A DNA stretch of 58,643 nucleotides from Chloroflexota bacterium (lineage in GTDB: Bacteria; Chloroflexota; Chloroflexia; JAMCWQ01). The stretch covers positions 1 through 58,643 of the forward strand of contig JAMCWQ010000017.1 in the NCBI GenBank assembly GCA_023480825.1, given 5' to 3'. The stretch's first letter is position 1; each line of letters starts with the position of its first letter. A program made the translations under genes and the position numbers. The notes under the pieces were generated by a model. The model was not told where the DNA came from and made no database searches. It saw nothing but the letters and a program-made list of their open reading frames with translations. Positions 10,998-52,006 of this stretch are shown piece after piece.

Positions 10998-12425
10998 TCA
11001 GCTATTCTTGTAGAATGAGGAGCGGTTGAACAGGAACCTGTCCACTAAAGAGAGCGCCCTCTGAGGAACCTCGAAGAACTGGTTGTGGATGACCTTGGGG
11101 AGGTCAAGAGCCTGCCGGGCCATCATCTCCGTGCTGAACTGCATTATCAGGCCAAAATTCCAGGCGACAAAGACAGCACCAATCGTCCCCAGGGCCCAGC
11201 GGGGGACTCTCCGGTCCGCCAGATCAACAAGCGCTGCCAGTCCCAGGCCAAATATCAGGCTGCAGTTGACAAACCGTCTGGCTCCAAAGGACCCGGCCAT
11301 GGACCAGGTCTTGTACGCCCCGGCGATATAGACCTGAGCCAGGAAAGCTATGGCCAGCAGGACGGCCAATTGCGGGTCCCGGCGGTAGAGGGCAACAAGG
11401 CCGATCACCGCCAGGATCGCAACAGGAGTCCAGGCGAATAGGCCATGCTCGGGGGAAAAGAGCACATCGAAGGAGAATGGTGAGTTCCACAATAACTTCT
11501 CGGTGACATGGCTGGAAGGCCCAAAATGACCTGTCAGAATCCGGTAAGTGATCAGTTGCGGAATGTACAACACAAAGGCAGTGGCGCCAAAGGCCAGTGC
11601 TCCGCCGGCGAGCCCTCTGAACCTACTGAAATCCCGGCCGCGAAGCGAGTGGACTACGTTCAGAAGCCACTCCAAAGCCGGAATGATCATGAACAGGGCA
11701 TCCTGTTCCCGCACCAGCGTCATCAACGCAGCCGAGGCGCCGAGGGCGGCCCATTGCCACAGTTTTCTGTCCCCGCGTGTCCGGTACCAGATGTAGATGA
11801 AGAGTGCAACGGCGAATAGAGAGTTGGCGTGAGACATCGGCGGCGTGATGTACATGTAGAAGAACGCCGGCGTGGCCAACCAGACGACGATGGTGCCGAG
11901 AGAGGAAGCGAAGCGCGAGAAGATGCTACGGGCGAGCAGGTAGGTGAAAATCAGGCCCAGGAAGCCGTAGATTGCAGAACCATAGGTTATAGCGGTGATG
12001 TACGGCGCGGAATACCCGTCGGCCTGCACGTTGGAGCCGAAGGCGCGCATCACGTGCACGGCCAAATCGCCGGCGGCAAAGAAGGGAGCCCACATTATTG
12101 CTGAGCCGATCGGGGCGACGTTCAGCGGCAGGCCGGTTGTCTCCTCACGCTTGTCGATCAGATCTTGTTTGAAAGCAGCGTATTTTTGGGGATTGCTCTC
12201 GTAGAAGTGCATGTACTCATTGGTGAAATCCAGGTTCTGATCGAACCAGAAGGAACGCAAGTAGGAGAAATACTGAATCTCATCGGCTCCATAGATCCGG
12301 GTTGTGACAGCCGGCAGGAGCAGCACGAAGAAGACCACCAGAACGAGGAGCCCGCGATCCATCGAGCGTATCCGGCTGATGCGGCTGGCCTTCGTATTTT
12401 TGAACTGTTGACTTCCAGTTGTCAC
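10998..12425 (-). CDS. polytopic membrane protein, GT-C-like (first-loop 'YGADEIQYFSYLRS' acidic motif); last gene of the large operon
   Basis: There are about 11-12 hydrophobic helices. A D-E pair follows TM1 directly, as in ArnT/PMT-type GT-C enzymes. The gene overlaps the upstream GT4 stop by 4 nt. Confidence 0.55.
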   Translation of the reverse strand: MTTGSQQFKNTKASRISRIRSMDRGLLVLVVFFVLLLPAVTTRIYGADEIQYFSYLRSFWFDQNLDFTNEYMHFYESNPQKYAAFKQDLIDKREETTGLPLNVAPIGSAIMWAPFFAAGDLAVHVMRAFGSNVQADGYSAPYITAITYGSAIYGFLGLIFTYLLARSIFSRFASSLGTIVVWLATPAFFYMYITPPMSHANSLFAVALFIYIWYRTRGDRKLWQWAALGASAALMTLVREQDALFMIIPALEWLLNVVHSLRGRDFSRFRGLAGGALAFGATAFVLYIPQLITYRILTGHFGPSSHVTEKLLWNSPFSFDVLFSPEHGLFAWTPVAILAVIGLVALYRRDPQLAVLLAIAFLAQVYIAGAYKTWSMAGSFGARRFVNCSLIFGLGLAALVDLADRRVPRWALGTIGAVFVAWNFGLIMQFSTEMMARQALDLPKVIHNQFFEVPQRALSLVDRFLFNRSSFYKNS

Positions 12426-13675
12426 TGGGTTTGTTCTCCTCCATCAAGGAAATCTGCAATAGCCAAAATGCGTTGCGCTCGCTTTGTGTAACCGAAATCG
12501 GAGGCACGGAGCAGAGCTTGCCCGGCTTTGCTGGAGGAGCCATGCCCATCGTGCACAATCATCAACGATTGGCACAGTGCCTTCGGCTCACCTCTGCGGA
12601 AGAAGTAGGCCGATTCGTCGTCCAGAATCTCGCGCAGCGCCGGCATGTCCGGCAGCACCACCGGCTTGCCGGTTGCCATATATTCGAACATCTTCAGCGG
12701 CGAGGCGGTTATATCACTAACGGTGTCGGGGATCACGAGCACATCAGCCGCATTAAGGTACTTCACGACGCACTCTGCGTCGAACCTCCCTGGCATCAAT
12801 ACCTTGCCGGCTGGTAGCCCCGCCTCGCGGGCGACCTGCGTCAACTCCTCCCGCTCATTATCTCGACCGCCAACGAGGACGAGCAGGGAATCGGAATGCT
12901 GTGCTTGGAACTCGGCAAATGCTCGCACCAGTAAGTCCAGCCGCCGGTAGGAGAACGTCAGACCCGAGTAGACGACTATGAAACTATCCTGAGGGAGATG
13001 CAGCTCATTGCGACAGGTGGCCCTGTCCAGTGGACGGTAGACGGCTTCGTCGAACGCATCCGGGACCACGTGTACGGACCGGGCATCTCTTATCCCTTTG
13101 TCGGCCAGTTCGGTGGCGAAGGCGCCCGTCAGCGAGACCACCGCCACGGAGCGCCGGATTGTCTCTCTATCCACCAGTCGCAGTGCTCCCTGCAGGAACC
13201 TGCTCTTGGAGCGAGAGGGATTCCTCGCCTCTAGGTCGTGAGCCTCATAGACAACGGGAATCCCCAGCGCCGGCCCGAGCAGGACGGCAAACCAAAAAGC
13301 ACAAATGACGTCGCGCACGTAGATCGCACCGAGAGCCGGCTTACCGGCCAGCTTGCGGGCCGCGAGAAAAGCCGCGGCCTCGAAGGCGAATGCTGTCCTC
13401 TCGGCATAGCTCCAGATAGTGCCCTTCACGAAACGCGTGACCTTGTTGATCGGGACCCGCAGCAGATGGCGGGCCCCAATGGCCGAAAACGCGCTCTGCT
13501 GAAAGGGGAGCCGGGGGATAAGAATCAGCAGGTCCGGATCTATTTCCTTCAACCGGGCGCAGGTGTGGAAAGTCTGAACAGCGTTGGCCGAACCCATGGT
13601 AAGACTGGTCGGATAGGCAAGGTAGCACAAATGGCGATGCTTGGAGGCTGGTCTGCGGTTCAGTTCAGCGCTCAT
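12422..13675 (-). CDS. GT4-family (GT-B fold) glycosyltransferase
   Basis: The C-terminal Glycos_transf_1-like region reads 'LVLVGGRDNEREELT...VLMPGRF...ADVLVIPD...SPLKMFEYMATGKPVV'. Confidence 0.8.
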   Translation of the reverse strand: MSAELNRRPASKHRHLCYLAYPTSLTMGSANAVQTFHTCARLKEIDPDLLILIPRLPFQQSAFSAIGARHLLRVPINKVTRFVKGTIWSYAERTAFAFEAAAFLAARKLAGKPALGAIYVRDVICAFWFAVLLGPALGIPVVYEAHDLEARNPSRSKSRFLQGALRLVDRETIRRSVAVVSLTGAFATELADKGIRDARSVHVVPDAFDEAVYRPLDRATCRNELHLPQDSFIVVYSGLTFSYRRLDLLVRAFAEFQAQHSDSLLVLVGGRDNEREELTQVAREAGLPAGKVLMPGRFDAECVVKYLNAADVLVIPDTVSDITASPLKMFEYMATGKPVVLPDMPALREILDDESAYFFRRGEPKALCQSLMIVHDGHGSSSKAGQALLRASDFGYTKRAQRILAIADFLDGGEQTQ

Positions 13676-14903
13676 ACAGCCTCATCAGCCTCTCGGTAAT
13701 CGGTCCGGTACGGAACCCTTCGGCGAAACTGGTACAGCGCATGGAAGTCTCCCGGCGAAGCCCTTCGTCCTCCAGGAGCCGCACGATTCCCGCAGCGAGC
13801 TCTTCAGCAGACCGCGGCCCGACCACCAGCCCGCACCGGTATTGACTGACAAAGTCTGCAATGCCGGTGCTAGACGTCACAACAGATGGTGTACCCACAG
13901 CGGCCGCCTCCACGACCACCTTGTTGAGCGCCTCGACCACCGAGGGGACGACAAGAACGTCAGAGGCAGCCATATAGGAGCGAACATCATCGTAGTCAAC
14001 TGCACCCGTAAAGACGATGTGCCCGGACATGCCCAGAGTATCGGCCAGTTTTCTCAGGTACGTCACGTAATCCCCGTACCTGGGTGTTATCCTGCTCGGT
14101 CCGCAGACCAAGAAGACGGCTCTTGGCGACCGCTCCAGAACCGCCGGCATCGCCCGGACAAGATACTCGATTCCCTTGAACGGGTGCAGCCTGCTGAGGG
14201 CGATAAGCACCTGGGCATCGTCTGCCACCCCCCAGTGTGGCAGGAGCAGGGCGCGGCTCTGGGACCGGTACTCCTCAAGGGATACGTTATCCGGCAGGTA
14301 AGCCCTCTCCCGGACGTTCCGTGGTATGGTTTCGGTCTTGTCCTTGCCGGCTCCTAGGGCAACGGCTAGCTTCTCCGTCCGGTAGGAATTCGCCCTGACC
14401 GCTTTCGCTCGCCACATGGCAAATGAAGTGAGCCAGCGGGGAATGGCGAAGCGGGCATATCCATAGTCCACTTCCGGGCAACTCATCACATCGGCTCCTT
14501 GGAGGTTCAACACAAACGGGATACTTGCATGGAGACTGGCAAGAGCGGCGATAGCGCCGAACGGATAGGCGGCCTCCACATGCACTAAGTCATACTTTCC
14601 CGTGTGCTGCGCCAAGAAGCGGGAGTAGCCGGCAAGGAGATCGAGAAAGCGGTCGTACTTCAAGAAGCGCAAGGAGAGGGCACGGGCCAGCTTTGTTCGG
14701 AGGCCTCCAGCCGGCAATATGCGATAGACTCGTCTACCGCTCCTGGCGCTGTCGGGAGCCTCTTGCTCATCGGCGAACCCCGCCCCCGGGGTGAAAACGT
14801 CCACCGTGTGCCCATGCTGCTCAAGGTAATCGCAGGTCTCCTCATGGACATCGTTTCCCAGCAGATGGGGACCGTAGGCCCCGATGAGGTAGAGAATTCT
14901 CAC
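13665..14903 (-). CDS. GT4-family glycosyltransferase
   Basis: The N-terminus is 'MRILYLIGAYGPH'. Further motifs are 'FLVCGPS...HIVFTGAV' and 'VVPSVVEALNKVVVEAAAVGTPSVV'. Confidence 0.8.
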   Translation of the reverse strand: MRILYLIGAYGPHLLGNDVHEETCDYLEQHGHTVDVFTPGAGFADEQEAPDSARSGRRVYRILPAGGLRTKLARALSLRFLKYDRFLDLLAGYSRFLAQHTGKYDLVHVEAAYPFGAIAALASLHASIPFVLNLQGADVMSCPEVDYGYARFAIPRWLTSFAMWRAKAVRANSYRTEKLAVALGAGKDKTETIPRNVRERAYLPDNVSLEEYRSQSRALLLPHWGVADDAQVLIALSRLHPFKGIEYLVRAMPAVLERSPRAVFLVCGPSRITPRYGDYVTYLRKLADTLGMSGHIVFTGAVDYDDVRSYMAASDVLVVPSVVEALNKVVVEAAAVGTPSVVTSSTGIADFVSQYRCGLVVGPRSAEELAAGIVRLLEDEGLRRETSMRCTSFAEGFRTGPITERLMRLYER

Positions 14904-16120
14904 GTTCCCGCTCTGCTTCCGGCTTCAACGTAGACGCCTAGTATCTGTCGTACGAGCGCCTCTTCGTCATATCGCTCCCGAACCGTACGGCGGCCGTTCT
15001 GCACGAGCCGTTCCCGCAGTTGGCCATCATCCAGAATCATGTTGATCTTGCTCGCCAGCGACTCCGGGTTCTCCAGTTCCGCGAGGAGCCCATTGGAGCC
15101 GTCCTGGATGATCTCGTCGACGACAGGTATCTTCGAAGAGATGACAGGGCACCCGGCAGCCATGGCCTCGAGAAGCGGCAGGCCAAAGCCCTCATAGCGG
15201 GTGGGCAGAGCGTAGGCGTCGCATTCCCGGAAGAGGCGAATCTTCTCCTCCTCGCTCACCCTGCCGGCGATCCTCAGGTTCTGCTCTGTTCCGTTCATTT
15301 GGCAAATGCCGCGGAGGGCGGGTTCGTTCCTTGTGTTATGACCAACAAACACAAAACTGGCGTTCGGATGTTCCCGTACCACAAAGGGCATTGCCTTAGC
15401 CAATATGTCGAAGCCTTTCCGGTATTTCAGTTGGCCGACGAACAGAATTGCCGGCCTGCTCAATTGGGCCTCTGGAGAGCCGGAGATTGACTCGATATAG
15501 TTGGTGTCGATCCATAGGGGCACCACGGAAATCCGCGGCGCCGGCACTCCCATCAGTCTCAGTAGTCCTGCCTCATGCGCGGAAAGGGCGATTATTTTGT
15601 CTGCCCGGCGCAGGGCGGAGTGGAGCAAGTAGTTCTGGAGGTTGCGCCAGATCTTCCGGCTGCGGATGGCCCGGGAGAACATTTTGGGCGCCGAGTAAAT
15701 CAAATTGTCGAAGTGCGGCGCATCTCTCAAAGGGTAGTCCCGGTCGTCCACCAAGAAGGGGTCGTGCAGAACACCCAGCGGGCTCAGAACCACAGGAACG
15801 TGCCGGCGGCGGAGCAACGAGATGGCCTCGTAGGAGATGCAGTTTCGCAGATGGTGCACGTGCACGACATCTGGCCGTGCTTCCAGGATGATGTCTTGCG
15901 CCAATTCCTGGGAAAACCAGAAGCGGTTGTACCTGGCCCGATGGACTCTAATTCCATCGATGTTTTCCTGGCGATTGCTCAGAAGCGCCGAGCCCGGCTC
16001 CCGGTAGGTATAGCAGATGACGTCGTGACCACGTTCCACCAAAGCCCGGCCCAGTAAGTACTCCGGCCAGTCCTTGAAGAACGAGGTAACGCCGCCTGTT
16101 GTTACTAGAGCGATCCTCAT
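14900..16120 (-). CDS. GT4-family glycosyltransferase
   Basis: Motifs are 'MRIALVTTGG' and 'FVFVGHN...RIAGRVSEEE...ALPTRYEGFGLPLLEAMAAGCPVISS'. Confidence 0.85.
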   Translation of the reverse strand: MRIALVTTGGVTSFFKDWPEYLLGRALVERGHDVICYTYREPGSALLSNRQENIDGIRVHRARYNRFWFSQELAQDIILEARPDVVHVHHLRNCISYEAISLLRRRHVPVVLSPLGVLHDPFLVDDRDYPLRDAPHFDNLIYSAPKMFSRAIRSRKIWRNLQNYLLHSALRRADKIIALSAHEAGLLRLMGVPAPRISVVPLWIDTNYIESISGSPEAQLSRPAILFVGQLKYRKGFDILAKAMPFVVREHPNASFVFVGHNTRNEPALRGICQMNGTEQNLRIAGRVSEEEKIRLFRECDAYALPTRYEGFGLPLLEAMAAGCPVISSKIPVVDEIIQDGSNGLLAELENPESLASKINMILDDGQLRERLVQNGRRTVRERYDEEALVRQILGVYVEAGSRAGT

Positions 16121-17244
16121 TGCGAAAGCAGCCTCTGGTACTCTTTCATCACGTTGTCTCCGACGGCCTGCCAGCTATATCGTTCGATTACGACGCGGCG
16201 GCCCGCTTTGCCCATTGCCACAGCCCGTCGCTCGTCTGACAGAACTTCGACGATCTTGGACGCGAAAGCTCCTGAGTCCTGAGGGGGCACGAGCAGCCCG
16301 GTAATGCCTTCCTCAACCACCTCGCTGAACCCTCCAAAATCGCTGGCTACCACCGGTTTCTCACAGGCCATGGCCTCGCAGAGCGCAATTCCGAACGTCT
16401 CATTGGCGAAGCTGGAACCAACGACCAGATCGGCCATCGAGAAATAACGTGGCATCTGATCGTGCGGGACTTGCCCGATGAAAGCGACGGCCGGCGCAAT
16501 TCCCAGCCCGTTCGCCAACGCCACCAAGTCTTCCTTATAGGGTCCATCAGCCGCAATCACCAACCTTGCTGGAATCTGCCTCATGACTTCGGGCATTGCT
16601 TCAATCAGATATTGCACCCCCTTCCAGCGCACCAAGCGGCCGGCAAACAAGAGGACCTTCTCTTCGGCCGGGGCGAAACGGCGCCGGAAGACCGGATCAG
16701 GCGGCAATGGCCGGAAGAACTCCGAGTCGATGCCATTGTAGACCACGCGTGGCTGCACCCCATAGCGTTCCTTGACCTGAGCGGCATTGAACCGGCTACA
16801 GGAGACCGCACCGTCGATGAACGGGATGAACAGCCTATCGCCCGGAAAAAAATCCTTCCCGTGACACCCAAACAGTAATTTGACCCCGCTAAGAGTTCTG
16901 GCGGCCACACCCGCGGGCAGATCGTACGGTTTTTGGATGTGGATTATATCATAGCCGCGACCCACAATCCCCGGCAAGCTGGTGACGCCCAGTGTTAGCC
17001 GCTCCATGAGCTTAGTGACGGCCCAGGCGGTGCGCAATCCGGGGATGGCGCGGAACAGGTTGCGGTCGACGAAGGCGTGGCGAATGACGCCGCAAGTGCC
17101 TGCTTCCTGGGTCACTTTGCCAATACCACCAATGATGTCGACCTCGACGCCGCGGCTTGCGAGCTCCCTGGCCAGACCCCAGACAAATGTCTCCACGCCG
17201 CCGCGTTTGGTTGTCGTGGTCAGGTTGTATAAAGCAATCCTCAT
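16117..17244 (-). CDS. GT4-family glycosyltransferase
   Basis: Motifs are 'MRIALYNLTTTTKRGGVETFV' and 'LVIAADGPYKEDL...VGSSFANETFGIALCEAMACEKPVVASDFGG'. Confidence 0.85.
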   Translation of the reverse strand: MRIALYNLTTTTKRGGVETFVWGLARELASRGVEVDIIGGIGKVTQEAGTCGVIRHAFVDRNLFRAIPGLRTAWAVTKLMERLTLGVTSLPGIVGRGYDIIHIQKPYDLPAGVAARTLSGVKLLFGCHGKDFFPGDRLFIPFIDGAVSCSRFNAAQVKERYGVQPRVVYNGIDSEFFRPLPPDPVFRRRFAPAEEKVLLFAGRLVRWKGVQYLIEAMPEVMRQIPARLVIAADGPYKEDLVALANGLGIAPAVAFIGQVPHDQMPRYFSMADLVVGSSFANETFGIALCEAMACEKPVVASDFGGFSEVVEEGITGLLVPPQDSGAFASKIVEVLSDERRAVAMGKAGRRVVIERYSWQAVGDNVMKEYQRLLSQ

Positions 17245-18815
17245 AGAAACCGCACCACCGATTTGCCAAAGGGAATCCTCAGTGACAACACCCGTTCCTT
17301 GTCCGCCGCATCGAAACCTCCTTGCGCTTTGAAGGACACGTAGAAAAGCAAAGCGCCAAGAGGAATCAGGACGGCAACCTCGAGATAATTAGTCGGCAGC
17401 AGCCACACCAGCGGTACGAGCACTACCGTGAAGACCGCGCTGGAAATGGTTACCCGGAACAGGAAACCCCAAGGAAAGCTCAGTTCCATGTCTCGCCAGG
17501 CAAACAACAGGCTGACGAAGCGCGACAAAACCGGCGCCAGTCCCATCGCCACTGCTGCCCCAATGACCCCGAACCGGGGCACCAACAGGAACAAGGAGGG
17601 GATTGCCAGCAGAGATACTAGTCTGGATACAATCACGGACCTATTGTGCTCGTAGACCATTAGGACGGTAAGGGCAACACTAATTAATGACTCGGCGAAT
17701 AGCAAGACCGTTAAAATGATAGTCGCCGTTACCGCCGTCGGAAGGGTTAGGCTAGTCAAAACCGAGCCGGGCTCATTCTTCATGTAGAGGAGCTGCAATA
17801 GATCACCGGACATGATACATAAGCCGGCCGCAGCCGGCAGGAGAGCAAAGATCAGGAATTTTGTCAGCACGCTATACGCGGTCTTCATTGCCTCTTTGGT
17901 GTGCTCGGCGCGTATTCTCGCGAACAGCGGAGTCTGAATCCCTGTTAGTGGGACCACCAGGGCTTTCAGCAACTGCTTGGCAAACTTGTAGGTCAGGGTG
18001 ATGAGCGCTATTTCGGCAAACTGCTGATAGTAGGCCATCACGAACACTACGAACGGAAGGTCATAAAAATAGACGCTTATGTTAAGGAAGTAAACCAGCC
18101 CGGCATAAGAGAGAGCGCGGCGGGCAATTCCTTTGGCGTCATCCCTGCTGAGCACCCGCTCGCGATGCGCACCCCGCATGGCTGCTCGCACAGCTAGATA
18201 GGTCGAGACGATTACCGACAACATGGTGGTGATGAGCAAAGCGAACAGAACCCCGACCGCTCCCCAACCAAGGAGGACGAAGGCCACGGTGAGAAAGGGA
18301 TTCACCACTGCCGCCAGGATATCGAGGAGATTGGTAGACCTCTGCTCGAGATAGCTGTAGAGAATCTGGATCGTGATATCGGAAATCGTCCCGAGAATCA
18401 GTAGAGCACTGATGATGGGGATGAGCAGAGAGCTATCGCTGCCGAATTGAAACAACTGTGAAAAGAAAGGGTTGAAGATATTCAACGCAAGCACTATTAT
18501 GGCAATCAGCGACAGCTTCAGGCCGGAAACGCCGTATACAAAGCGCTTCACCCCTCGCCGGCCATATACTGCTTCCATCTCGGGGACAAACTTGCTCAGG
18601 CTCCTATCGATGCCGAGGTCAGAGTAGAGCCCAATCGTGGCCAAGACCGAGTTGGCTATGGCCAGCAACGCATAGGCACTCACATCCAGCCAGCGCACGA
18701 GGACTATCGAAGTAGCGACGGCGATAATCGTCTTTACCGGGAAGAAGAAAGTATTCCAGAACAGGGCCATCGACGTCCGCTTGGCCAGTGGGGATGCCAT
18801 ATCCGCAGCAGGCAT
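17241..18815 (-). CDS. Wzx-like oligo/polysaccharide flippase (MOP superfamily)
   Basis: The 524-aa protein has about 14 hydrophobic helices. Its N-terminal pattern is 'NTFFFPVKTIIAVATSIVLVRWLDVSAYALLAIANSVLATIGLYSDLGIDRSLSKFVPE', typical of polysaccharide biosynthesis and flippase proteins. Confidence 0.7.
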   Translation of the reverse strand: MPAADMASPLAKRTSMALFWNTFFFPVKTIIAVATSIVLVRWLDVSAYALLAIANSVLATIGLYSDLGIDRSLSKFVPEMEAVYGRRGVKRFVYGVSGLKLSLIAIIVLALNIFNPFFSQLFQFGSDSSLLIPIISALLILGTISDITIQILYSYLEQRSTNLLDILAAVVNPFLTVAFVLLGWGAVGVLFALLITTMLSVIVSTYLAVRAAMRGAHRERVLSRDDAKGIARRALSYAGLVYFLNISVYFYDLPFVVFVMAYYQQFAEIALITLTYKFAKQLLKALVVPLTGIQTPLFARIRAEHTKEAMKTAYSVLTKFLIFALLPAAAGLCIMSGDLLQLLYMKNEPGSVLTSLTLPTAVTATIILTVLLFAESLISVALTVLMVYEHNRSVIVSRLVSLLAIPSLFLLVPRFGVIGAAVAMGLAPVLSRFVSLLFAWRDMELSFPWGFLFRVTISSAVFTVVLVPLVWLLPTNYLEVAVLIPLGALLFYVSFKAQGGFDAADKERVLSLRIPFGKSVVRFL

Positions 18816-18817
18816 AC

Positions 18818-19681: not shown

Positions 19682-19693
19682 TTCAGGTACTCC

Positions 19694-23247: not shown

Positions 23248-23250
23248 GAC

Positions 23251-25021: not shown

Positions 25022-25024
25022 GAC

Positions 25025-28016: not shown

Positions 28017-28029
28017 CGGCTGCGGTCTC

Positions 28030-37807: not shown

Positions 37808-37847
37808 CTAGCATACTCCAGGCTACGGATAGACCCACCGCGACGCT

Positions 37848-41161: not shown

Positions 41162-41174
41162 GGCAGACTCTCCC

Positions 41175-43649: not shown

Positions 43650-43651
43650 GG

Positions 43652-46600
43652 CTAGTATTCCAAGTGCGCTGTAATCTTGATTTTCGCTCCGGATTCTAGT
43701 GCCGGTATAACAATCTGGTCTTTTTGGATTTCCAGTCGCTCCCCATTGGCCGCTGCCGCACTGGCTACGATGCCCGGGAGAGTAAGGGTGGTGCCCGTTA
43801 TTCCATCCTTTCCCGTATTCTGTAATGTTATGGAGAGGTCATTCCCATTTTGAGTCGACTCGACCTTCAGATTGCGCACCGCGAGATAGTGCTCCACGAT
43901 ATTGGTCAGTGTATCGACAACCAAACCATCTTCCCGTTTGGACGCTGCATAGGCAACCACCCGATCCCACATCTGCATCCCATTACTATCTGCCACGGAC
44001 TCAGGGTGCGTCCAAAGGCTGGTAAATCCTCGACGCGCCAGCACCTCATCGATACTCTGGAGAGCCGTCTTCTCGCTATCCGCTGTGTCCTGCAATTCTT
44101 GATCCGGGTACACCAGCAAGGGAGGATTGCTCGCTATGCCGGAGAGTTCGAACGGATCGCCGTACTGGTAAAGTCTCGTCACGGCCAGGACGCCGCGATC
44201 GGCAAGCGCCTGATAGTGCGGCAGAGTGAGGCTATTGCTGGCGGCCCAGGGAAAAGCAAATGTCTTAGCCGGTCCCAAGCCGTGCTCGGACGCTACGCTA
44301 TTCCACTGATCGAGGTCGGTCTTGAACTCCTTCAGCGAGGTCCCGCGTGCATACAGGTGTCCAAACGTATGGGACTCGATATCCTGGCCGGCAGCTATCA
44401 TCTTATCCACCAGATCACCGAAGTACCAACCGGGATCCGTCTGGTACGTGCCATAAGGGTCGAAGCTATACCACGGGTGCTCCGCCCAGTAGTTCGATGC
44501 CCAACCATTCTTCTGGCTGGCCCATTTGTAGGTAGGGTCACCCGCAAATTGCTGATGTTCGGTATTCCCGTAGAGCAGGTCATAGCCGGTGGAATAAAAA
44601 GTCCCTTGCACTCCATACTTCTGGAAGATCGTTAGCAGATTCTCGGCGCCCTGCCTCATCTTTAGCCCATGCTCGGTAGCTCCGCTTACGCTAGGCTCTG
44701 CCGCCCCCCGGGAGTGTATAGCACCGCCCATGGCCGTCTCCCAATCGAAGGTAAATGCCAGCGCGGCCTTCCCGAAGTCCCGAATCGGCTCCACTCTCAC
44801 CCCTGCTTGGGAGAGTCTCACATCGTCGACGAAAGCCGTGCCGTCAGCTGAACGAAAGCGCACACGCAACCCCGTGGCGTCCAAGGGGGCGATGAAACCA
44901 AGGCTGTTCATCCCCCAAAGAGACCCGGCCCTCTGGAAGCTGGAATTGGTTCCAACCGGTTGCCTGAGGTCGTTCTCCCAGATAAAATCCACCCAGTAAG
45001 CCCCATTGCCCGTGGCGTACCAGGTGAGTTGGTGCTGCTGCCCGCTACCTACGTACACTAATGCGGACTCCACCGCTCCTGCGCCGGGTCCCATTTCCGC
45101 CGAGGACTTACTGTTCCGGCCGTTGGAGGCGATGTGCGCTGTCCCGGTGAGCTTCCAGCCTGACGCCGGTCCCGAGGAATCGGTGCTCTCGAAGGAAGCA
45201 TTAGACAGCAGATTGCACCCTGCATCAAGAAGCGCACTTTCTCTCGCGGCATAGTTCCCGCTTGCTTCTGCCGTATAATACCAGGAGAGCGCTCCGATTA
45301 CTGCTATCAGACAGACTGCAGGGACTGCCGCCCGCAAGGGATGGATTTGCCAGGCGGCTTTCGAGTACACCCGGGTCAAGCCGATCATTACCAGCACGGC
45401 CGCGCCCGCTCCACAAGCGAGAAGCAAGTAGATTCCCGTATCGAGGAGCCGGGGGGCGAATGTGTCCAGGGAATGGCTATTCAGTACTGTGCCGAGAGCC
45501 TTGAGCCATTGCTGCTCGGACGCAGGGTGACCGAACATCGCCTGCAAGCTCAAATAGGAACGCACAATGGAGAAGCCCGCCACAGGGGCAATGGCGCCCC
45601 AGGCCGCCACGCGCCAATAGCGGCTTCGTACGCTCAAGACTCGCTCGAATATGACCCCTAGCCCGGCGCCGAGCAAAGGGATGATCGACAGAATGTACCG
45701 AGTGTCTTCAGAGCCGCCCCCTGAGTACGTGCGGTGCATGGACAAGACTCCGAGCAAGATCAGAAAGCCGATCAGGATTAGCGATAGCTCCCGCCACTTC
45801 CTTCTGGCAACGATTGCCAGGCCGGCAAGCGAGAGCAGCAAGATCGGGCTGACGGCAAATATGCCATTTTGCCCGAAGAGGAAGAACCTCAGCCCTTCGA
45901 CAATTGGAGTGGTGTACGTGGTGGACAAGGCGCGCGCCCACTCGAAGTGATACTGGTACGTGTATGATGTGGCCAACGGAGAACCGAAGTTCAACCAGTT
46001 GTAGGCCACTAGCGTTGCCAGCGCCGGCAATGCCCCGGCAATTGCAGTTTCCCAATGCTGGAGCTTGGCCCGCTGTAGCAGGATATATAAGCCGAAGGGA
46101 ATGAACAGCAGGACATTGATATAGTCGACAAGCACCGCATAGCCGAGCAGCAGTCCCGAGCAAAAGAGCAAGGCGGGAAAGCGTGATAGCCTGCGAGAAC
46201 CAGCCCATCTTATGGCCAGGTAGGCAGCGCCCGTCACCAGAGCAGCGGACAAGGCGTGGTTGTAGAAGAGCGTGGAGTACTTCCAGAGCAGGGTACCCAA
46301 GCCCACGAGCAGGGCCGCGACCAGCGCCGAAGGAGCCCTGACACCTAGCTCTCTACCAATTCCGTACATGCCGAGAATGGCAAAAGCTCCGGCAATTGCG
46401 GAGAGCACGCTCACCGAGGATTCCAGCCCGGATTGTCCGATAATTCCCAGCAGCATCAAAGCATCGCCTGCCAGATAGAAAGGAACCGCAAGAAAGGCGG
46501 TCCCTGGGGCCCGGTCCGAGTAGAAATGGCCACCATAGTAGCTCAAGTCTAGGTAGGCATCAGGAGGCGGTATAGAGCCCAAGTCTTGCCTGGCGGTGTA

Positions 46601-46768
46601 GTCGATGTAGTGGTCGATGGCTGTTGAATGATAGTCCACTATAGAACGCGTCAGGGCGAAGTGGCTGCCATCGTTCGTGGAGACAATTCCCGCGGAAGAG
46701 ACAAAGAAGACCCAGCCGACAGCAATTACGAGCAGCGCTAGAAGCCACCTCCGCCACGCCTTAGCCAT
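43652..46768 (-). CDS. 1038-aa fusion: polytopic membrane domain (GT-C-like) plus CBM4_9-like beta-sandwich plus divergent CE4/NodB polysaccharide deacetylase plus C-terminal beta domain
   Basis: aa 1-500 are multi-TM, with 'YYGGHFYSDRAPGTAFLAVPFY'. aa 517-655 contain 'NLLSNASFESTDSSGPASGWKL...', a CBM-like stretch (nt 44804-45220). aa 668-925 form the NodB-like domain, with 'FTFDWE' (nt 44741-44755), 'HTFGH' (nt 44357-44371) and 'LWTHPES'. Confidence 0.7.
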   Translation of the reverse strand: MAKAWRRWLLALLVIAVGWVFFVSSAGIVSTNDGSHFALTRSIVDYHSTAIDHYIDYTARQDLGSIPPPDAYLDLSYYGGHFYSDRAPGTAFLAVPFYLAGDALMLLGIIGQSGLESSVSVLSAIAGAFAILGMYGIGRELGVRAPSALVAALLVGLGTLLWKYSTLFYNHALSAALVTGAAYLAIRWAGSRRLSRFPALLFCSGLLLGYAVLVDYINVLLFIPFGLYILLQRAKLQHWETAIAGALPALATLVAYNWLNFGSPLATSYTYQYHFEWARALSTTYTTPIVEGLRFFLFGQNGIFAVSPILLLSLAGLAIVARRKWRELSLILIGFLILLGVLSMHRTYSGGGSEDTRYILSIIPLLGAGLGVIFERVLSVRSRYWRVAAWGAIAPVAGFSIVRSYLSLQAMFGHPASEQQWLKALGTVLNSHSLDTFAPRLLDTGIYLLLACGAGAAVLVMIGLTRVYSKAAWQIHPLRAAVPAVCLIAVIGALSWYYTAEASGNYAARESALLDAGCNLLSNASFESTDSSGPASGWKLTGTAHIASNGRNSKSSAEMGPGAGAVESALVYVGSGQQHQLTWYATGNGAYWVDFIWENDLRQPVGTNSSFQRAGSLWGMNSLGFIAPLDATGLRVRFRSADGTAFVDDVRLSQAGVRVEPIRDFGKAALAFTFDWETAMGGAIHSRGAAEPSVSGATEHGLKMRQGAENLLTIFQKYGVQGTFYSTGYDLLYGNTEHQQFAGDPTYKWASQKNGWASNYWAEHPWYSFDPYGTYQTDPGWYFGDLVDKMIAAGQDIESHTFGHLYARGTSLKEFKTDLDQWNSVASEHGLGPAKTFAFPWAASNSLTLPHYQALADRGVLAVTRLYQYGDPFELSGIASNPPLLVYPDQELQDTADSEKTALQSIDEVLARRGFTSLWTHPESVADSNGMQMWDRVVAYAASKREDGLVVDTLTNIVEHYLAVRNLKVESTQNGNDLSITLQNTGKDGITGTTLTLPGIVASAAAANGERLEIQKDQIVIPALESGAKIKITAHLEY

Positions 46769-48392
46769 CTTTGTTGATCCTGTAAATGGTGTAGCGCTCG
46801 TGCCGTTCCACTGCTTGAGCTACCATCTCAATCTGAGCTAGTGTATCTTTGGTCAATCGGCCGGCACTCTTAGCGTCCAGAACGAAGTAGTCAGCCATTT
46901 TCACTCTGTCTAATAGCGACTGCTGAGCCGCCGGCTGGTGCATGGTATCCCAGACATCGGCCGTCGATCCTCCGGCATCCGCTGTGACTCCCTGCCCGCT
47001 CTCCGGCGCTTGGCTCAAGGCAACATATATCAGTTGCCCATAACTGTCAACTAAGTAGGTTCCATCGGGCCCGCGCGCCGGCTCCCTCGCTGACAGGAAA
47101 GTGAAAGCAGGATCAAGGGTGAGCATGGTGCTTCCCGGCGGCGTATCGGCCAAGTAACGTGCCACCATCACGTAGATCCGGTCGGCATGAGGCGCCGCAA
47201 AGGCCGAGACTTGGAGCCAGGCAAGGGGAACCAGAGCGAGCGCCATTAGGCCCCCGGCAGCAGCCCAGAGATATTGCCGCTGTCCCCTGGGCAATCTCAG
47301 AATCGAGAATCCAGCGCCGCCGATAAGGGCCAGCGGGGGTGCGACCTGCATGTAATAGTGAGCGTAATAGGACCGGCTGGTGAGCAGGAGAGCGATGCCG
47401 AGCGCCAGCCAGCCGACAACAGGAAACCATCGCTTGCGGCTCTCTCCTCGCAAGACGAACGCGATAACGATCAACCCGATGGTAGCAAGGACGATGGTCA
47501 GAGATGATCCTCCGCCGCCCGTTGTGCTCCACAGCCGCTGCAAGGGGTCAACAATGCCATCGACCGGCCTGGACAGTTGAAAGCTGAGGACCTGCTTCAG
47601 CATTTCTCCGTTGCTTAGTAGCTGGAAGGGCAAGCCCACGGTGACAACCACGCCGGCAAAGACGCCGCCGGCCAGTACAGCTTGAATCCACTTGCGCGCC
47701 AAGAGGATGGTCAAAATCACGACTATAATGGTCAGGACACCAGGGGCTTTGGTGAGGGCCGCCATGGCTGCGAGCAGGCCAGCCACTGCTGCCCAGTAGC
47801 CGCCTTTTCGACTGTCGGCGGCCATCAAGGCGGCGAAGACAGCCGCCAGGGAGAAGAGCGCCAAGGGCGATTCCAGCATCACCTGCCTGTTGCTCTCAAT
47901 GACCATTGCGTCAATGGACCATATGGCCGCCGCTCCCAGGCCGGCCTTCCAACCGCCAAGCTTCCAGGCAATGGCAAATACCAGTGGCACACACAGAGCA
48001 CCCAGAAGGCTGGAGAAGTACCTTGCCATGATGAAAGACGTTGGCGATCCCCATAGGTTGAAATGGTATAGTAGCGCCGGGGAAAACACGTAGGCCGCCA
48101 AGGGAGGATGACCAAAGAAGAAATCCCGGTAGGGAATGGCTCCTTGCAGCGCAAGCTGATTGGCGAGGGCGTAGACCCCTTCGTCCTCGTAGGGCTGCCA
48201 AGTCATCCCGATGGACTGGGGCCAGATCTGACTGAAACGGGCAAAACCGGCGAGCACGGAGATTCCCAGGACGCTGATGGCGAGAGCCACCGGCTGCATG
48301 AAACCACGGGTTGCCGGTGAACCGCCATGGTCGGCTACCGGGTTGACGGGCAAATTGTCCTCAGCCCCTGGTCTGCTGGTTACTCTCTCCAT
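46761..48392 (-). CDS. GT-C glycosyltransferase (GT39/PMT_2/DUF2029-like)
   Basis: The first-loop motif is 'YEDEGVYALANQLALQGAIPYRDFFFGHPPLAAYV'. The protein has about 11 TM segments and a C-terminal soluble domain. Confidence 0.7.
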   Translation of the reverse strand: MERVTSRPGAEDNLPVNPVADHGGSPATRGFMQPVALAISVLGISVLAGFARFSQIWPQSIGMTWQPYEDEGVYALANQLALQGAIPYRDFFFGHPPLAAYVFSPALLYHFNLWGSPTSFIMARYFSSLLGALCVPLVFAIAWKLGGWKAGLGAAAIWSIDAMVIESNRQVMLESPLALFSLAAVFAALMAADSRKGGYWAAVAGLLAAMAALTKAPGVLTIIVVILTILLARKWIQAVLAGGVFAGVVVTVGLPFQLLSNGEMLKQVLSFQLSRPVDGIVDPLQRLWSTTGGGGSSLTIVLATIGLIVIAFVLRGESRKRWFPVVGWLALGIALLLTSRSYYAHYYMQVAPPLALIGGAGFSILRLPRGQRQYLWAAAGGLMALALVPLAWLQVSAFAAPHADRIYVMVARYLADTPPGSTMLTLDPAFTFLSAREPARGPDGTYLVDSYGQLIYVALSQAPESGQGVTADAGGSTADVWDTMHQPAAQQSLLDRVKMADYFVLDAKSAGRLTKDTLAQIEMVAQAVERHERYTIYRINKDG

Positions 48393-48395
48393 GAC

Positions 48396-49382
48396 CTAGT
48401 CTCCGGCCAAGGCTTTCGCCCGCTTCGCCTCCAACCGCGCTGGATAACGCAGCCAGACTAGGAATCCGGTTCCGAGGTTTGTCAGGTTCAAGACGAGGAT
48501 CAAGGCGGAAACGCTAATGGCATATTCCGGCTGGAACCCTAATTGTTGGAAGATCACTATCAGAGTCACGTCCCTCGTGCCGATTCCACCAACTGAAACG
48601 GGGATGAGGGAGGCGATCGTAGCCAACGAGGCGACGGCGACCAGTTGCACGGGACCGATGGAAAGCCCAAGTGCCGGGAAGAACAAGTAGACCCGAAAGA
48701 ACGACAGCGCGAACGACAGAACTGTGATGACGCTCACTTCGACAATTGTGCTCTTCGACATGGTGAGCATATCGAGGTGCTCGCGTGAGATGTAGCGCTG
48801 AATGAAGCCCTTCACTCTTGGCGGCAGCAAATGTTTGGAGATGGCGCTGAATACCGCGCTGCGAAAGCGCGAGCTCACCAGGAAGGCAACGGCGATCAGT
48901 ACCACGGCGATTACGAGCACCAATACGGCGAGCTCGCTTTGGAAAGCGGCCCAGAACACAAAGACACTCGAGAGAGCGAAGAAGGCAAGGATTACGATGT
49001 CGAACAACCTGTCGAGAACGACGCTGGCAAGCGAGGGAGCCAGCCCATTCCCCAGCGCCTTCAAATACCATGCTTTTACAGCATCTCCCGCCTGGCCTGG
49101 AGTGAAACTACCGGCGGAGAGGCCAATGGAGTAAAGCTGCCAAGCGGCGGAGAATGACAATTCGATGCCATAGCTCCTAAGGATGACTATCCAACGCCAC
49201 GACTTGATGGCGATGAAGGGAATCACCAGCAGTATGGAGATGATGACCAGAGTAGGATTGACCCTTAGCAAGCTATCAGCCAACTGCTGGACATCTACCA
49301 GACGGTAGACGATCGCGGCGAACACGAGCGTGCCGACGACCCGTAGGACCCATTTGAGCCAGCTAGAGTTTAGCTTTGCCAT
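48396..49382 (-). CDS. UPF0104 / LPG-synthase-TM-type 'flippase-like' membrane protein
   Basis: The 328-aa protein has about 8 TM segments. The motif 'FIAIKSWRWIVILRSYGIELSFSAAWQLYSIGLSAGSFTPGQAGDAVKAWYLK' fits this family, which commonly accompanies polyprenyl-phosphate GT2 enzymes. Confidence 0.65.
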   Translation of the reverse strand: MAKLNSSWLKWVLRVVGTLVFAAIVYRLVDVQQLADSLLRVNPTLVIISILLVIPFIAIKSWRWIVILRSYGIELSFSAAWQLYSIGLSAGSFTPGQAGDAVKAWYLKALGNGLAPSLASVVLDRLFDIVILAFFALSSVFVFWAAFQSELAVLVLVIAVVLIAVAFLVSSRFRSAVFSAISKHLLPPRVKGFIQRYISREHLDMLTMSKSTIVEVSVITVLSFALSFFRVYLFFPALGLSIGPVQLVAVASLATIASLIPVSVGGIGTRDVTLIVIFQQLGFQPEYAISVSALILVLNLTNLGTGFLVWLRYPARLEAKRAKALAGD

Positions 49383-49388
49383 GAGTCT

Positions 49389-50312
49389 CTATTCTTTCCG
49401 TTCAAAGCGCATGGCCGCTATTTGTTCTGAGACCAGACCCATGAGGAATATGATGATGCTCATGCTGATAAGGAGCGCGGAGGAATTGGTGATATGGACC
49501 TCCGTCCAAATCGTATAGGCCGCGTACCCTGCCCCGAGCAAGAACGACAAGAGGCTAATTGGGAAGAATATACGGAGCGGACTGTACAGCGTGATGATTT
49601 TGAAGATTATCATCGTGAACTTGGTGCCGTCGCGCGCCAGCTTTATCTTGCTCTTGCCGATTCGCTTGTGAGCCTTGATAGGCACGAATTTCACGCTATA
49701 CCCGGCTTTGATGAAAGCGAGCGTGCTCGTGGTGGGATAAGAGAAGCCGTTCGGCAGCAGGTGGATGAACTCCATTATCATCTCCCGCTTCATCGCCCGA
49801 AAGCCGGAAGTCAAATCGGGAATCTCCCGGCCGACCATGTAGCTGGCCAGGCGATTGAGGACCCAATTCCCTAGGTCTCGCTGCACGGCAGTGTCGGAGT
49901 CGCCGGACCGGGCGCCGACGACAAGGTCATAGTCCGGAATGTATGATAGCAACCGGCGAATATCATCTGCGTCGTGCTGCCCGTCGGCATCCATTAGCAA
50001 GACCACTTCCCCGGTAGCGTTTCGAATCCCGGTCTTCACCGCAGCGCCGTTGCCCTTGTTGTAGGGATGTCGAATGACCCTGGCGCCATGGTCGGCGGCG
50101 ACTGCCGCAGTGTCATCACCGGACGCATCGTCCACGACGAGCACTTCAGCATCCGGGCAGATGCCCCTGACCTTGCTTACTACGGCGCCAATCGCCTGTC
50201 CCTCGTTGTAAGCCGGAATGACGATCGTCAACGTGAATGATAGCCCGTTCACCGGCTCGGGATGCAGCGCCTCCGTGGTTTGGGGTTCAGTCTCTGTCTG
50301 TTGCAGCTGCAA
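49389..50312 (-). CDS. GT2 polyprenyl-phosphate sugar synthase (GtrB/ArnC/DPM1-like) with two C-terminal TM helices
   Basis: Motifs are 'TIVIPAYNEGQAI', 'VLVVDDASGDDT', 'NKGNGAAVKTGI' and 'LMDADGQHD'. The C-terminal region reads 'IIFKIITLYSPLRIFFPISLLSFLLGAGY...ALLISMSIIIFLMGLVSEQIA'. The ORF-track start is a TTG, and an in-frame GTG alternative lies further in. Confidence 0.85.
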   Translation of the reverse strand: MQLQQTETEPQTTEALHPEPVNGLSFTLTIVIPAYNEGQAIGAVVSKVRGICPDAEVLVVDDASGDDTAAVAADHGARVIRHPYNKGNGAAVKTGIRNATGEVVLLMDADGQHDADDIRRLLSYIPDYDLVVGARSGDSDTAVQRDLGNWVLNRLASYMVGREIPDLTSGFRAMKREMIMEFIHLLPNGFSYPTTSTLAFIKAGYSVKFVPIKAHKRIGKSKIKLARDGTKFTMIIFKIITLYSPLRIFFPISLLSFLLGAGYAAYTIWTEVHITNSSALLISMSIIIFLMGLVSEQIAAMRFERKE

Positions 50313-50358
50313 TTTGCGCTTTTCCCCTTCTCAGGATTCGGCAAGATTTAGTTCACAG

Positions 50359-50385
50359 ATTATAGCACACCCGGAATATCGGCAA
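50359..50385 (-). promoter_or_regulatory. extended -10 sigma70-type promoter for the 27-gene operon
   Basis: On the minus strand the sequence reads TTGCCG (50385-50380), a 15-nt spacer, then TGcTATAAT (50367-50359). It lies in the only sizeable gap (187 nt) between the two minus-strand gene blocks, about 40 nt upstream of the GT2 start. Confidence 0.55.
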
Positions 50386-52005: not shown

Positions 52006-52006
52006 G

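Follow-up and report, generated by a model that had tools for sequence, protein, structure and literature searches.

A locus rich in GT-C glycosyltransferases in a Chloroflexota genome is a candidate factory for an envelope glycoconjugate

A 39-kb locus in the genome of an uncultured Chloroflexota bacterium (assembly GCA_023480825.1, contig JAMCWQ010000017.1) encodes eleven membrane glycosyltransferases of the GT-C type, two candidate synthases of polyprenyl-phosphate sugars, two flippase candidates, cytoplasmic glycosyltransferases of family GT4, and enzymes of amino-sugar and methyl chemistry, all within 27 consecutive minus-strand genes (g27 to g01, 50312 down to 10998) of the 58,643-nucleotide (nt) stretch analysed here (hereafter the window). 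We propose, at a probability of roughly 0.6, that the locus is an envelope-glycoconjugate factory in which a precursor would be made inside the cell, flipped across the membrane, and then extended or decorated outside by GT-C enzymes that draw on polyprenyl-phosphate sugars, a route familiar chiefly from mycobacteria and from the glycosylation of teichoic acids. An earlier note on this DNA had described a membrane-glycosyltransferase operon of this kind, and its inventory (ten GT-C-like proteins and one fused to a CE4 deacetylase, two GT2 enzymes, a Wzx-like protein, a UPF0104 protein, six GT4 enzymes, a three-gene amino-sugar module, a B12 radical S-adenosylmethionine (SAM) enzyme and a methyltransferase) was reproduced by Pfam and NCBIfam scans covering every window product, together with a 58-amino-acid (aa) Trm112-like protein. 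The 27 genes are listed below with d1 and d2, which lie outside the operon (TM, transmembrane; CBM, carbohydrate-binding module; TPR, tetratricopeptide repeat).

10998-12425, minus strand: g01, GT-C-like protein of 475 aa, PMT_2-like (25.6 bits against a cutoff of 26.1), with a DE motif after the first TM helix (TM1) and at least seven TM peaks
12422-17244, minus strand: g02-g05, four cytoplasmic GT4 enzymes (Pfam Glycos_transf_1/Glyco_transf_4, E from 2e-16 to 4e-43) whose stop and start codons overlap
17241-18815, minus strand: g06, MOP-superfamily (Wzx-type) flippase candidate with about 13 TM helices (Pfam Polysacc_synt_3, 34 bits against a cutoff of 23)
18818-19681, minus strand: g07, SAM-dependent methyltransferase (Pfam Methyltransf_11, E = 4e-22)
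19694-21259, minus strand: g08, polytopic DUF2079 protein, candidate GT-C type (Pfam DUF2079, E = 1.6e-57, 196 bits), with an ATGA overlap with g09
21256-21972, minus strand: g09, soluble GT2 (Pfam Glycos_transf_2, E = 1e-30)
21973-23247, minus strand: g10, B12-binding radical SAM enzyme (Pfam B12-binding and Radical_SAM)
23251-26065, minus strand: g11 DegT aminotransferase, g12 hexapeptide N-acetyltransferase and g13 GFO/MocA dehydrogenase (Pfam DegT, E = 1e-123; Hexapep; GFO_IDH_MocA)
26076-32113, minus strand: g14, g15 and g16, tandem paralogs (28-33% identity) of a GT-C family without a Pfam model, assigned by the predicted fold of g14
32110-33318, minus strand: g17, GT4 (Pfam, E = 2e-39), conserved partner of g01-like and g14-like GT-C genes
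33340-33516, minus strand: g18, Trm112p-like zinc ribbon of 58 aa (Pfam Trm112p, E = 2.6e-12)
33535-35697, minus strand: g19, GT-C whose family (DUF6311/YfhO-related) occurs throughout Chloroflexota and which ends in a CBM6/35/36-like domain (AlphaFold and Foldseek; no Pfam match)
35690-39929, minus strand: g20 and g21, paralogous PMT_2 GT-C proteins with TPRs and a C-terminal CBM-like module (PMT_2, 61.8 and 45.4 bits; TPR families)
39926-41161, minus strand: g22, GT4 (Pfam, E = 4e-43), its 411-aa start agreeing with the gene call in stretch L001
41175-43649, minus strand: g23, N-terminal CBM-like module and PMT_2 GT-C, 824 aa (PMT_2, 37.8 bits)
43652-46768, minus strand: g24, fusion of a GT-C-like membrane domain and a CE4 polysaccharide deacetylase that is extracytoplasmic (Polysacc_deac_1, 29.5 bits, aa 706-852)
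46761-48392, minus strand: g25, PMT/ArnT-type GT-C (Pfam PMT, 55.1 bits; PMT_2, 36 bits) with an EDE motif after TM1
48396-49382, minus strand: g26, UPF0104/MprF-flippase-like membrane protein (Pfam LPG_synthase_TM, E = 5e-41)
49389-50312, minus strand: g27, GT2 with C-terminal TM helices, an architecture like that of GtrB, ArnC, DPM1 and AglJ (Pfam GT2, E = 1e-31)
51-1811, plus strand: d1, PTPS_related/YfhO-like GT-C candidate (PTPS_related, 33.8 bits against a cutoff of 26.4; weak YfhO and PMT_2 matches)
1838-3997, minus strand: d2, second GT-C of the g19 family, 59% identical to g19 over 709 aa (NCBI: 719-aa protein P0004)

The GT-C-type products of the operon are g01, g08, g14-g16, g19-g21 and g23-g25, and d1 and d2 bring the number in the window to 13. 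Five of the eleven (g08, g20, g21, g23 and g25) exceed curated Pfam thresholds for PMT_2, PMT or DUF2079, the GT-C assignment of g01, g16 and g24 draws on sub-threshold hidden Markov model (HMM) matches or BLAST links, and g14, g15, g16 and g19 match no Pfam or NCBIfam family. The links in question connect g01 with the N terminus of g24 (BLAST E = 3e-5), and g24 with g01 and the PMT_2 region of g20; g24 also matches the NCBIfam LA_3751/3752 putative glycosyltransferase (E = 2e-15), and an ortholog of g01 elsewhere (locus L082, 418 bits) carries PMT_2 (PF13231). PTPS_related, the family matched by d1, belongs to the Pfam clan GT-C (PMC7801869). As PDB sequence searches with g25, g24, g20 and the profiles of the g19 and g14 families left the membrane domains unmatched (the matches being to TPRs or, marginally, to CE4 only), fold comparison was needed. 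The AlphaFold model of g19 (40 homologs; pLDDT 86, pTM 0.86) found STT3, AglB, PglB and EmbB in the PDB by Foldseek, with E down to 7e-9, and its C-terminal beta-sandwich resembles CBM6/35/36; the model of g14 (59 homologs from an exhaustive profile search; pLDDT 92, pTM 0.92) found STT3, PglB, Pmt4, ArnT and AftA, and its domain between TM1 and TM2 resembles CBM35/36. With TM-scores of about 0.4, the STT3 matches reflect the common GT-C core. Both models are helical, hydropathy gives 7-17 peaks per GT-C candidate, and the candidates retain an acidic residue, either in the loop that follows TM1 or in its conserved equivalent: an invariant extracytoplasmic Asp in the two modelled families (D40 after TM1 in g19; the D of YPQxxxxD in the g14-g16 family), DE, DxE or EDE in g01, g20, g21 and g25, D33 in g24 and D-x-x-D in g23. 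By hhalign with single sequences, the family profiles reached probabilities of 0.5-12% against g08, g01 and d1, which are uninformative, and the g19 and g14 families align to each other in their CBM-like domains only. The eleven products are thus of GT-C type, by direct fold models for two families (g19/d2 and g14-g16) and by HMM or BLAST for the rest; the idea that most of these polytopic proteins might be transporters or unrelated folds, considered by HMM and fold comparison, found no support, and the earlier note was right to read them as GT-C enzymes rather than transporters. An oligosaccharyltransferase identity (STT3/PglB/AglB) was rejected, given that the WWDxG motif occurs in no product (neither WWD nor W[WYF]D[YFWA]G was found in any product by regular-expression search); the archaeo_STT3 match of g23 scores 38 bits against a cutoff of 450 and is limited to the shared N-terminal GT-C region.

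Six of the GT-C proteins have in common a beta-sandwich of about 140 aa, detected by all-against-all BLAST and HMM comparison. It is N-terminal in g14 (aa 70-215), g15 (55-203), g16 (68-210) and g23 (40-195), following TM1 in the first three, and C-terminal (135 aa) in g20 (560-705) and g21 (545-693); g23 matches the module HMM at E = 3e-65. The copies are 30-38% identical, and the membrane domains of the families that carry them are without detectable similarity. A more divergent copy forms the C-terminal domain of g19 (hhalign probability 93.9%) and, by paralogy, that of d2, which places the module in eight of the 13 GT-C proteins of the window, that is, seven in the operon and d2. Foldseek matches it to CBM35/36/6; it has no PDB sequence match and no Pfam model, and matches to CBM60 are sub-threshold. 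Its invariant residues are mostly acidic (D, D, E, D; motifs IDIGG, YRWT and DxRxLGVxVDxV), which is compatible with Ca-dependent binding as in CBM36/60, and the beta-sandwich might be given a CBM36/60-like family of its own. The acceptor polymer is the presumed ligand of the extracellular CBMs on AftD and YfhO (PMC8035078). We regard the shared module as the best evidence that these enzymes act on one glycan.

The operon also appears to supply donors. Two GT2 proteins, g27 and g09, are candidate polyprenyl-phosphate-sugar synthases, in agreement with the first reading: the best NCBIfam matches of g27 are AglJ (E = 2e-43), a Dol-P-hexose transferase (E = 3e-28) and PpgS (E = 1e-26), with ArnC also matching, and g09 matches ArnC best (E = 4e-21), along with the Dol-P-hexose transferase, AglJ, PpgS (E = 6e-13) and other GT2 families. 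TM peaks of g27 lie at 234-277, and it carries the motif MDADGQHD (DAD). Candidate flippases are g26, which matches the NCBIfam 'flippase-like domain' TIGR00374 with 109.9 bits against a cutoff of 43.2, and g06, a homolog of which adjoins g14-like and g08-like genes in locus L087; no GtrA or SMR protein was found among the window proteins, and g06 (MOP/Wzx) and g26 (flippase-like) both score above thresholds. One set consists of g27 (GT2), g26 (flippase-like) and g25 (GT-C), at spacings of 6 and 3 nt; the other comprises the amino-sugar genes g13-g11, g09 (GT2), g08 (DUF2079, with a 4-nt overlap) and g06 (MOP flippase). By gene content, these are predicted to form two complete multi-component transmembrane glycosylation modules in the canonical gene order of textbooks, and the other nine GT-C enzymes, which have no donor synthase of their own, presumably share those two donors. 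From the two GT2 and two flippase candidates in the same operon, we infer that the GT-C enzymes would use polyprenyl-phosphate donors outside the membrane.

On the cytoplasmic side, six GT4 enzymes (g02-g05, g17 and g22) lie within the 27 genes, and the glyco set as a whole, extended below, has ten or eleven Leloir enzymes. Among the amino-sugar genes, g13 best matches UDP-GlcNAc 3-dehydrogenase in NCBIfam (E = 4e-46), g12 is NeuD/PglB/VioB acetyltransferase-like (E = 2e-27) and g11 is PseC/WecE-like, a combination typical of 3-amino or 3-acetamido sugars. The NCBIfam matches of g10 are HpnJ/PhpK/BchE-like and all below cutoffs, and g18 is a possible methyltransferase partner. An anti-phage 'GT4-conflict' identity for the GT4 enzymes was rejected, as such matches were always far weaker than the generic GT4 matches.

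The 27 genes are tightly coupled. An ORF listing and junction script reproduced the minus-strand run, every overlap and the maximum gap that the earlier note had given: 4-nt overlaps at 12422, 14900, 16117, 17241, 21256, 32110 and 39926, overlaps of 8-11 nt at 13665, 24383, 35690 and 46761, and a largest internal gap of 40 nt (37808-37847). The 3' edge is sharp, with 10 nt separating the g01 stop at 10998 from that of a convergent P-type ATPase gene. The 5' boundary, which had been placed at a promoter at 50359-50385, was wrong because same-strand glyco genes run on past the 187-nt gap at 50313-50499; the promoter sequence is present as described, but the unit does not begin there, given that seven further same-strand genes (u1-u7, five of them glycosyltransferases) reach to another promoter at 57909-57880. 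The co-directional glyco set thus comprises 34 genes over about 46.9 kb (10998-57909).

50359-50385, minus strand: promoter-like site, TTGCCG (50385-50380), 15 nt, TATAAT (50364-50359), with a TGn extended -10 (TGcTATAAT), by sequence reading
50500-57846, minus strand: upstream block u1-u7, in order GT4, GT4, GT4, a 149-aa protein without assignment, GT2, GT4 and a DUF2085 membrane protein (Pfam)
57880-57909, minus strand: consensus sigma-70 promoter, TTGACA, 18 nt, TATAAT (12/12 consensus matches), 5' of u7

A consensus promoter scan missed the site at 50359-50385 because its 15-nt spacer is outside the consensus range. The 187-nt gap itself folds in no unusual way (z = -0.12) and no terminator-like hairpin was found within it; gaps among u1-u7 are at most 49 nt. 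The 57880-57909 promoter falls within the longest ORF of u7 (DUF2085 gene, 57220-57846, minus strand), the first ~136 codons of which appear non-coding (Arg/Ser/Pro-rich); the true start of u7 is probably the ATG at 57846, ~27 nt 3' of the predicted transcription start. Within the block, u2 and u3 form a tandem pair of duplicated GT4 genes (47% identity; 52007-54107, minus strand), and u4, of 149 aa, looks like a duplicated fragment of the GT2 u5, to whose C-terminal ~100 aa it is similar (30% identity; 54114-55974, minus strand). The upstream limit of the glyco genes is a gene fragment at 58013-58643 (minus strand) that runs off the right end of the window and is HExxH peptidase-like (HEKYHLKNRD, M48/M56-like).

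Genes of the 3' half of the locus recur as a conserved block in the Chloroflexi metagenome-assembled genome (MAG) GCA_015470965.1 (contigs L082/L084 and L090) and in a JGI metagenome contig (L100), in the order Trm112, GT4 (g17-like), DUF6311-like GT-C, three to four g14-family genes, methyltransferase, DUF2079 (g08-like) and methyltransferase (g07-like). L082 and L090 continue with GT4 genes (g05- and g02-like) and a g01-like GT-C, a part that the contig edge of L100 precedes. Orthologs of g07 lie in the core block of L082, L090 and L100, g08 is conserved in these and in L096, and g18 homologs adjoin a GT4 gene in L082, L090, L100 and L104. Relative to this block, the window has in addition the g13-g09 module, the flippase g06, two GT4 genes and the whole g20-g27 segment. 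In relatives that come from two other sequencing runs (66-77% identity), the junctions g14-g13-g12 and g19-g18-g17, which are specific to the window, are retained, and the 77%-identical relative L103 keeps the order g11-g13. A smaller GT4/g01-like/g14-like triad occurs in L085, L086, L088 and L092, and the g01-like/g14-like pair only in L093 and L094 (4.3-kb contigs). In L086 (1350-12001) and L092 (1289-11908), both from soil-type metagenomes, the triad follows a giant histidine kinase with six GAF/PAS domains and an OmpR-type response regulator, which suggests a minimal module that would be under signal control. Between the DUF2079 gene and the second methyltransferase, L082 (14525-14860) and L100 (14591-14941) have a small GBBH-like_N (DUF971) protein; the window has none.

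Two of the GT-C families extend well beyond this block. For the g14 family, an exhaustive profile search recovered 3478 representative clusters (50% identity) at E <= 1e-3 and, at the stricter E <= 1e-30, 736 of them, compared with 7-20 homologs from a word-seeded search. The g19 family spans Chloroflexota, with 570 confirmed stretches among GTDB species representatives. Among 80 Chloroflexota loci in which its neighbours were counted (L002-L081), the recurrent ones are class III aminotransferase (24 loci), FTCD_C (22), a metallo-beta-lactamase-fold protein (19) and PAP2 phosphatase (12), the last possibly serving carrier-lipid recycling. A g27-like GT2 gene overlaps the g19-family gene in the Anaerolineales chromosome L015, and a pair of B12 radical SAM and GT4 genes divergently adjoins a g19-family gene in three loci of the class Chloroflexia (L042, L068 and L079).

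Taken together, these features can be arranged into a hypothetical pathway. The GT4 and GT2 enzymes (g02-g05, g17 and g22; probably also u1-u3, u5 and u6) would assemble a precursor, either an oligosaccharide or a glycolipid, on a lipid of the membrane's cytoplasmic face; this precursor would contain a 3-acetamido (diamino) sugar from g13-g11 and may be methylated by g07 (with g18) and possibly by g10. The MOP flippase g06 would carry lipid-linked material outward. In parallel, g27 and g09 would load polyprenyl phosphate with single sugars, which g26 and/or g06 would flip. Outside the membrane, the eleven GT-C enzymes may then extend, branch and decorate the glycan using these lipid-phospho-sugars, seven of them held to the growing polymer by the CBM36/60-like beta-sandwich, and the CE4 domain of g24, in which the motifs FTFDWE, HTFGH and LWTHP are found, would de-N-acetylate the product in situ. 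PimA and PimB, which are GT4 enzymes, prime phosphatidylinositol mannosides, lipomannan (LM) and lipoarabinomannan (LAM) on a membrane lipid. We speculate that the GT4 enzymes of the locus could prime in the same manner, which would explain the missing phosphoglycosyltransferase. The substrates, the order of steps, the participation of all genes in one polymer, and a wall-associated or membrane-anchored polysaccharide as the product are what we infer from this arrangement.

Searches for assembly machinery cover the 58.6-kb window; the source contig, of 73 kb, extends about 15 kb further, and the remaining genome also lies beyond it. No priming phosphoglycosyltransferase (Bac_transf, or Glycos_transf_4 of the MraY/WecA type) was found in any window ORF at E <= 0.01; no Wzy_C, O-antigen polymerase, Wzz/PCP, OPX, LCP or ligase family matched in the window by Pfam/NCBIfam, which is insensitive for Wzy; and no ABC_tran match occurs in the window, where, of the GT2 proteins, g09 and g27 are short, u5 is soluble and none is a processive multi-TM synthase. 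Pfam/NCBIfam likewise found in the window no markers of teichoic-acid, O-antigen, rhamnan or other acceptor-polymer pathways. Hence the earlier statement that the window has no primer, Wzy, Wzz, ligase, ABC or OPX component is borne out over all ORFs; the further claim that the locus departs from the Wzx/Wzy paradigm is not shown, given that the MOP/Wzx-type g06 is present, Wzy is hard to detect and the remainder of the contig and genome is out of view.

Several points weigh against our reading. The limited view of the contig and genome is one, and in the window no primer, polymerase, ligase (LCP/WaaL) or acceptor was identified, because of which the start and end of the pathway are unassigned. 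Both g27 and g09 score far below NCBIfam equivalog cutoffs, which leaves their donor sugars unassigned. The GT-C status of g08 depends on DUF2079 being a member of the Pfam GT-C clan, which we take it to be. Genes of the g19 family elsewhere are usually solitary among housekeeping genes, and the conserved core occurs elsewhere without g20-g27 and g09-g13, so that the locus is modular and its modules might serve different acceptors. Functions have been deduced from sequence and structure, the source being an uncultured MAG. Finally, eukaryotic GT-C enzymes that bear TPRs (TMTC) glycosylate proteins, not polysaccharides.

The most serious competitor, to which we give a minority share of belief, is a conventional Wzx/Wzy locus whose primer, polymerase, chain-length and attachment genes lie elsewhere, the GT-C enzymes adding side-chain decorations only after polymerisation. 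The Wzx-type MOP flippase and at least ten Leloir-type glycosyltransferases would fit such a locus, the known multi-component systems are decoration systems (PMC8035078), and the missing genes could sit in the part of the contig or genome out of view; however, eleven GT-C genes, three of them tandem paralogs, far exceed any described decoration system, and the 58.6 kb contain no Wzy, Wzz, PCP, OPX or LCP match. Candidate systems with multiple GT-Cs are mentioned by Kelly et al., only as unexplained elaborations (PMC11127046). We consider it unlikely that the locus is instead a mosaic glyco-island, in which a decoration module, the conserved GT-C core, the amino-sugar module and the upstream GT4 block stand side by side without a single product. 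That the core block occurs elsewhere without the g20-g27 and g09-g13 segments, that in L086 and L092 the triad occurs by itself after a two-component regulator, that g19-family genes are solitary in most genomes and that there are at least two promoter-like sites would all suit a mosaic, yet stop/start overlaps bridge the module borders (g09/g08, g20/g19 and g25/g24), the arrangement is preserved in related populations, and the occurrence of the same CBM-like module in core (g14-g16) and accessory (g20, g21 and g23) GT-C enzymes argues for a common acceptor.

Protein glycosylation seems less probable still. Here the GT-C enzymes (especially g25, g20 and g21) would place sugars or a lipid-linked oligosaccharide, its glycan built by the GT4 enzymes, on secreted S-layer, sheath or pilus proteins. 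This explanation keeps some weight because g20 and g21 share their GT-C and TPR architecture with the eukaryotic TMTC O-mannosyltransferases (PMC7801869); in addition, g25 matches the protein O-mannosyltransferase family PMT, the best match of g27 is AglJ, an archaeal S-layer N-glycosylation enzyme, the top Foldseek matches of g19 and g14 are STT3/AglB/PglB, and S-layers exist in some Chloroflexota (PMC10284905). Set against this, the STT3 matches come from the common GT-C core, neither the WWDxG motif nor a MIR domain was found in the products, the locus encodes no candidate substrate protein, and eight GT-C proteins with the CBM-like module together with a polysaccharide deacetylase point to a glycan acceptor.

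A bolder version of the envelope-glycoconjugate reading can be formulated, which we hold to be doubtful. In it, the conserved core (Trm112, GT4, DUF6311-like GT-C, the tandem g14-family array, DUF2079 and g01-like GT-C) and the accessory GT-C enzymes would constitute a polymerisation machine independent of Wzy, ABC and synthase systems, building a major uncharacterised outer layer entirely outside the membrane from polyprenyl-phospho-monosaccharides, tethered by a new Ca-type CBM36/60-like module; the arabinogalactan/LAM strategy would then have been invented independently outside the actinobacteria.

Other parts of the window concern metal transport. An M-box (Mg2+) riboswitch (RF00380, 136 bits) lies at 4286-4455 on the plus strand, ahead of metal-transport genes; 3' of it are two Nramp-family transporter genes and a P-type cation ATPase gene (4903-6240, 6677-7978 and 8408-10987, all on the plus strand), and together they look like an Mg2+-regulated metal-uptake operon between d1/d2 and the main locus. 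Riboswitch control of the glyco operon was rejected, given that Rfam finds the M-box elsewhere in the window only. A minus-strand ORF at 4477-4848 is probably spurious because it has no family match and a low-complexity basic sequence. The G+C content is even (55-61%) throughout the window, part of which is also present in the Logan assembly of run SRR10244963; NCBI locus tags matched by the window include M1319_01115, M1319_01210 and M1319_01235.

In the literature we found no paper on GT-C-rich Chloroflexota loci, a Chloroflexi lipoglycan, the g14 family, DUF2079, DUF6311 or DUF6541. As the concept of a polyprenyl-phosphate sugar, a flippase and a GT-C is already established, the locus is not categorically new; it is distinguished by its GT-C density (eleven in 39 kb and 13 in the window), two unmodelled GT-C families, a new CBM-like module, the fusion of GT-C and CE4, and its occurrence in another phylum. 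Chloroflexota are abundant and have no lipopolysaccharide or BAM genes, yet they possess multilayered or 'neoderm' envelopes of unknown chemistry; polysaccharide or protein has been suggested as the material of the additional layers (PMC13319060). The locus and its conserved core therefore offer concrete candidate genes for one Chloroflexota envelope layer. At least one large GT-C family (the 3478 clusters above) is without a Pfam, NCBIfam or PDB sequence match, and the use of many GT-C enzymes in series may extend beyond the Corynebacteriales. If confirmed, these enzymes would widen the toolbox for extracytoplasmic glycoengineering.

Among known systems, the eukaryotic TMTC1-4 and PMT enzymes resemble g20 and g21 in joining a PMT_2-type GT-C to extracytoplasmic TPRs, and g25 matches PMT (PMC7801869). 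They differ in that g20 and g21 have only about two to three TPRs followed by a CBM-like domain, with no MIR, and sit in a polysaccharide-type gene cluster. The galactosamine modification of arabinogalactan by PpgS (Rv3631) and Rv3779 is comparable in making a polyprenyl-phosphate N-acetylhexosamine with a small GT2 and transferring it with a GT-C, and PpgS matches g27 and g09, although these score far below the PpgS equivalog cutoff. The sugar of that system ends up de-N-acetylated outside the membrane; in our locus, the deacetylase is fused to a GT-C (g24).

The analogy with mycobacterial arabinogalactan, LM and LAM assembly (EmbA/B/C, AftA-D, MptA/B and PimE; decaprenyl-phosphate arabinofuranose or mannose), which the earlier note had drawn, is reasonable, EmbB and AftA being among the Foldseek matches. 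In both cases one glycan would be worked on outside the membrane by a succession of many GT-C enzymes with polyprenyl-phospho-monosaccharides as donors, Emb and AftD carry periplasmic CBMs much as the GT-C enzymes here carry CBM-like modules, and the GT4 enzymes PimA and PimB begin a lipid-anchored precursor in the cytoplasm without a polyprenyl-diphosphate primer. Several GT-C genes are clustered in both, about six of them in the mycobacterial Rv3779-Rv3809c region. The added claim that the families here are different stands in part: by Pfam/NCBIfam, the window has no match to Arabinose_trans/GT87, Emb/Aft/Mpt/PimE, a UbiA-type DPPR synthase or DprE1/E2 (a marginal match in one of 60 g14-family members is the sole link to GT87), but PMT-, PMT_2- and YfhO-like families serve known multi-component systems. 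The phylum is another one (Chloroflexota), and the accessory chemistry differs in that our locus has genes for a 3-acetamido sugar, a B12 radical SAM enzyme, methyltransferases accompanied by Trm112, and a CE4 domain in fused form.

The closest known concept, which the earlier note did not name, is the three- or multi-component transmembrane glycosylation system, published examples of which combine a GT-A, a GtrA-, Wzx- or MATE-type flippase and a GT-C (PMC8035078, PMC11127046). Several features set our locus apart from such systems (GtrA-GtrB-Gtr*, ArnC-ArnEF-ArnT, CsbB-GtcA-YfhO, GacI/J/K/L and Citrobacter GT136): a UPF0104/MprF-like protein takes the place of the GtrA flippase, two GT-C families are without a Pfam, NCBIfam or PDB sequence match, and those systems decorate a polymer from another pathway, whereas no separate polymer pathway is visible in the window. 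The likenesses are nevertheless close, given that they too comprise a GT2 synthase, a flippase and an extracytoplasmic GT-C of the same clan (relatives of PMT_2 and YfhO/PTPS_related), that g27-g26-g25 stand in exactly their order and that g09-g08 with g06 match the variant with a cytoplasmic GT-A and a Wzx/MATE-type flippase (PMC8035078, PMC11127046). Where those systems have one GT-C per module, or rarely a few, the locus described here has eleven for two donor synthases.

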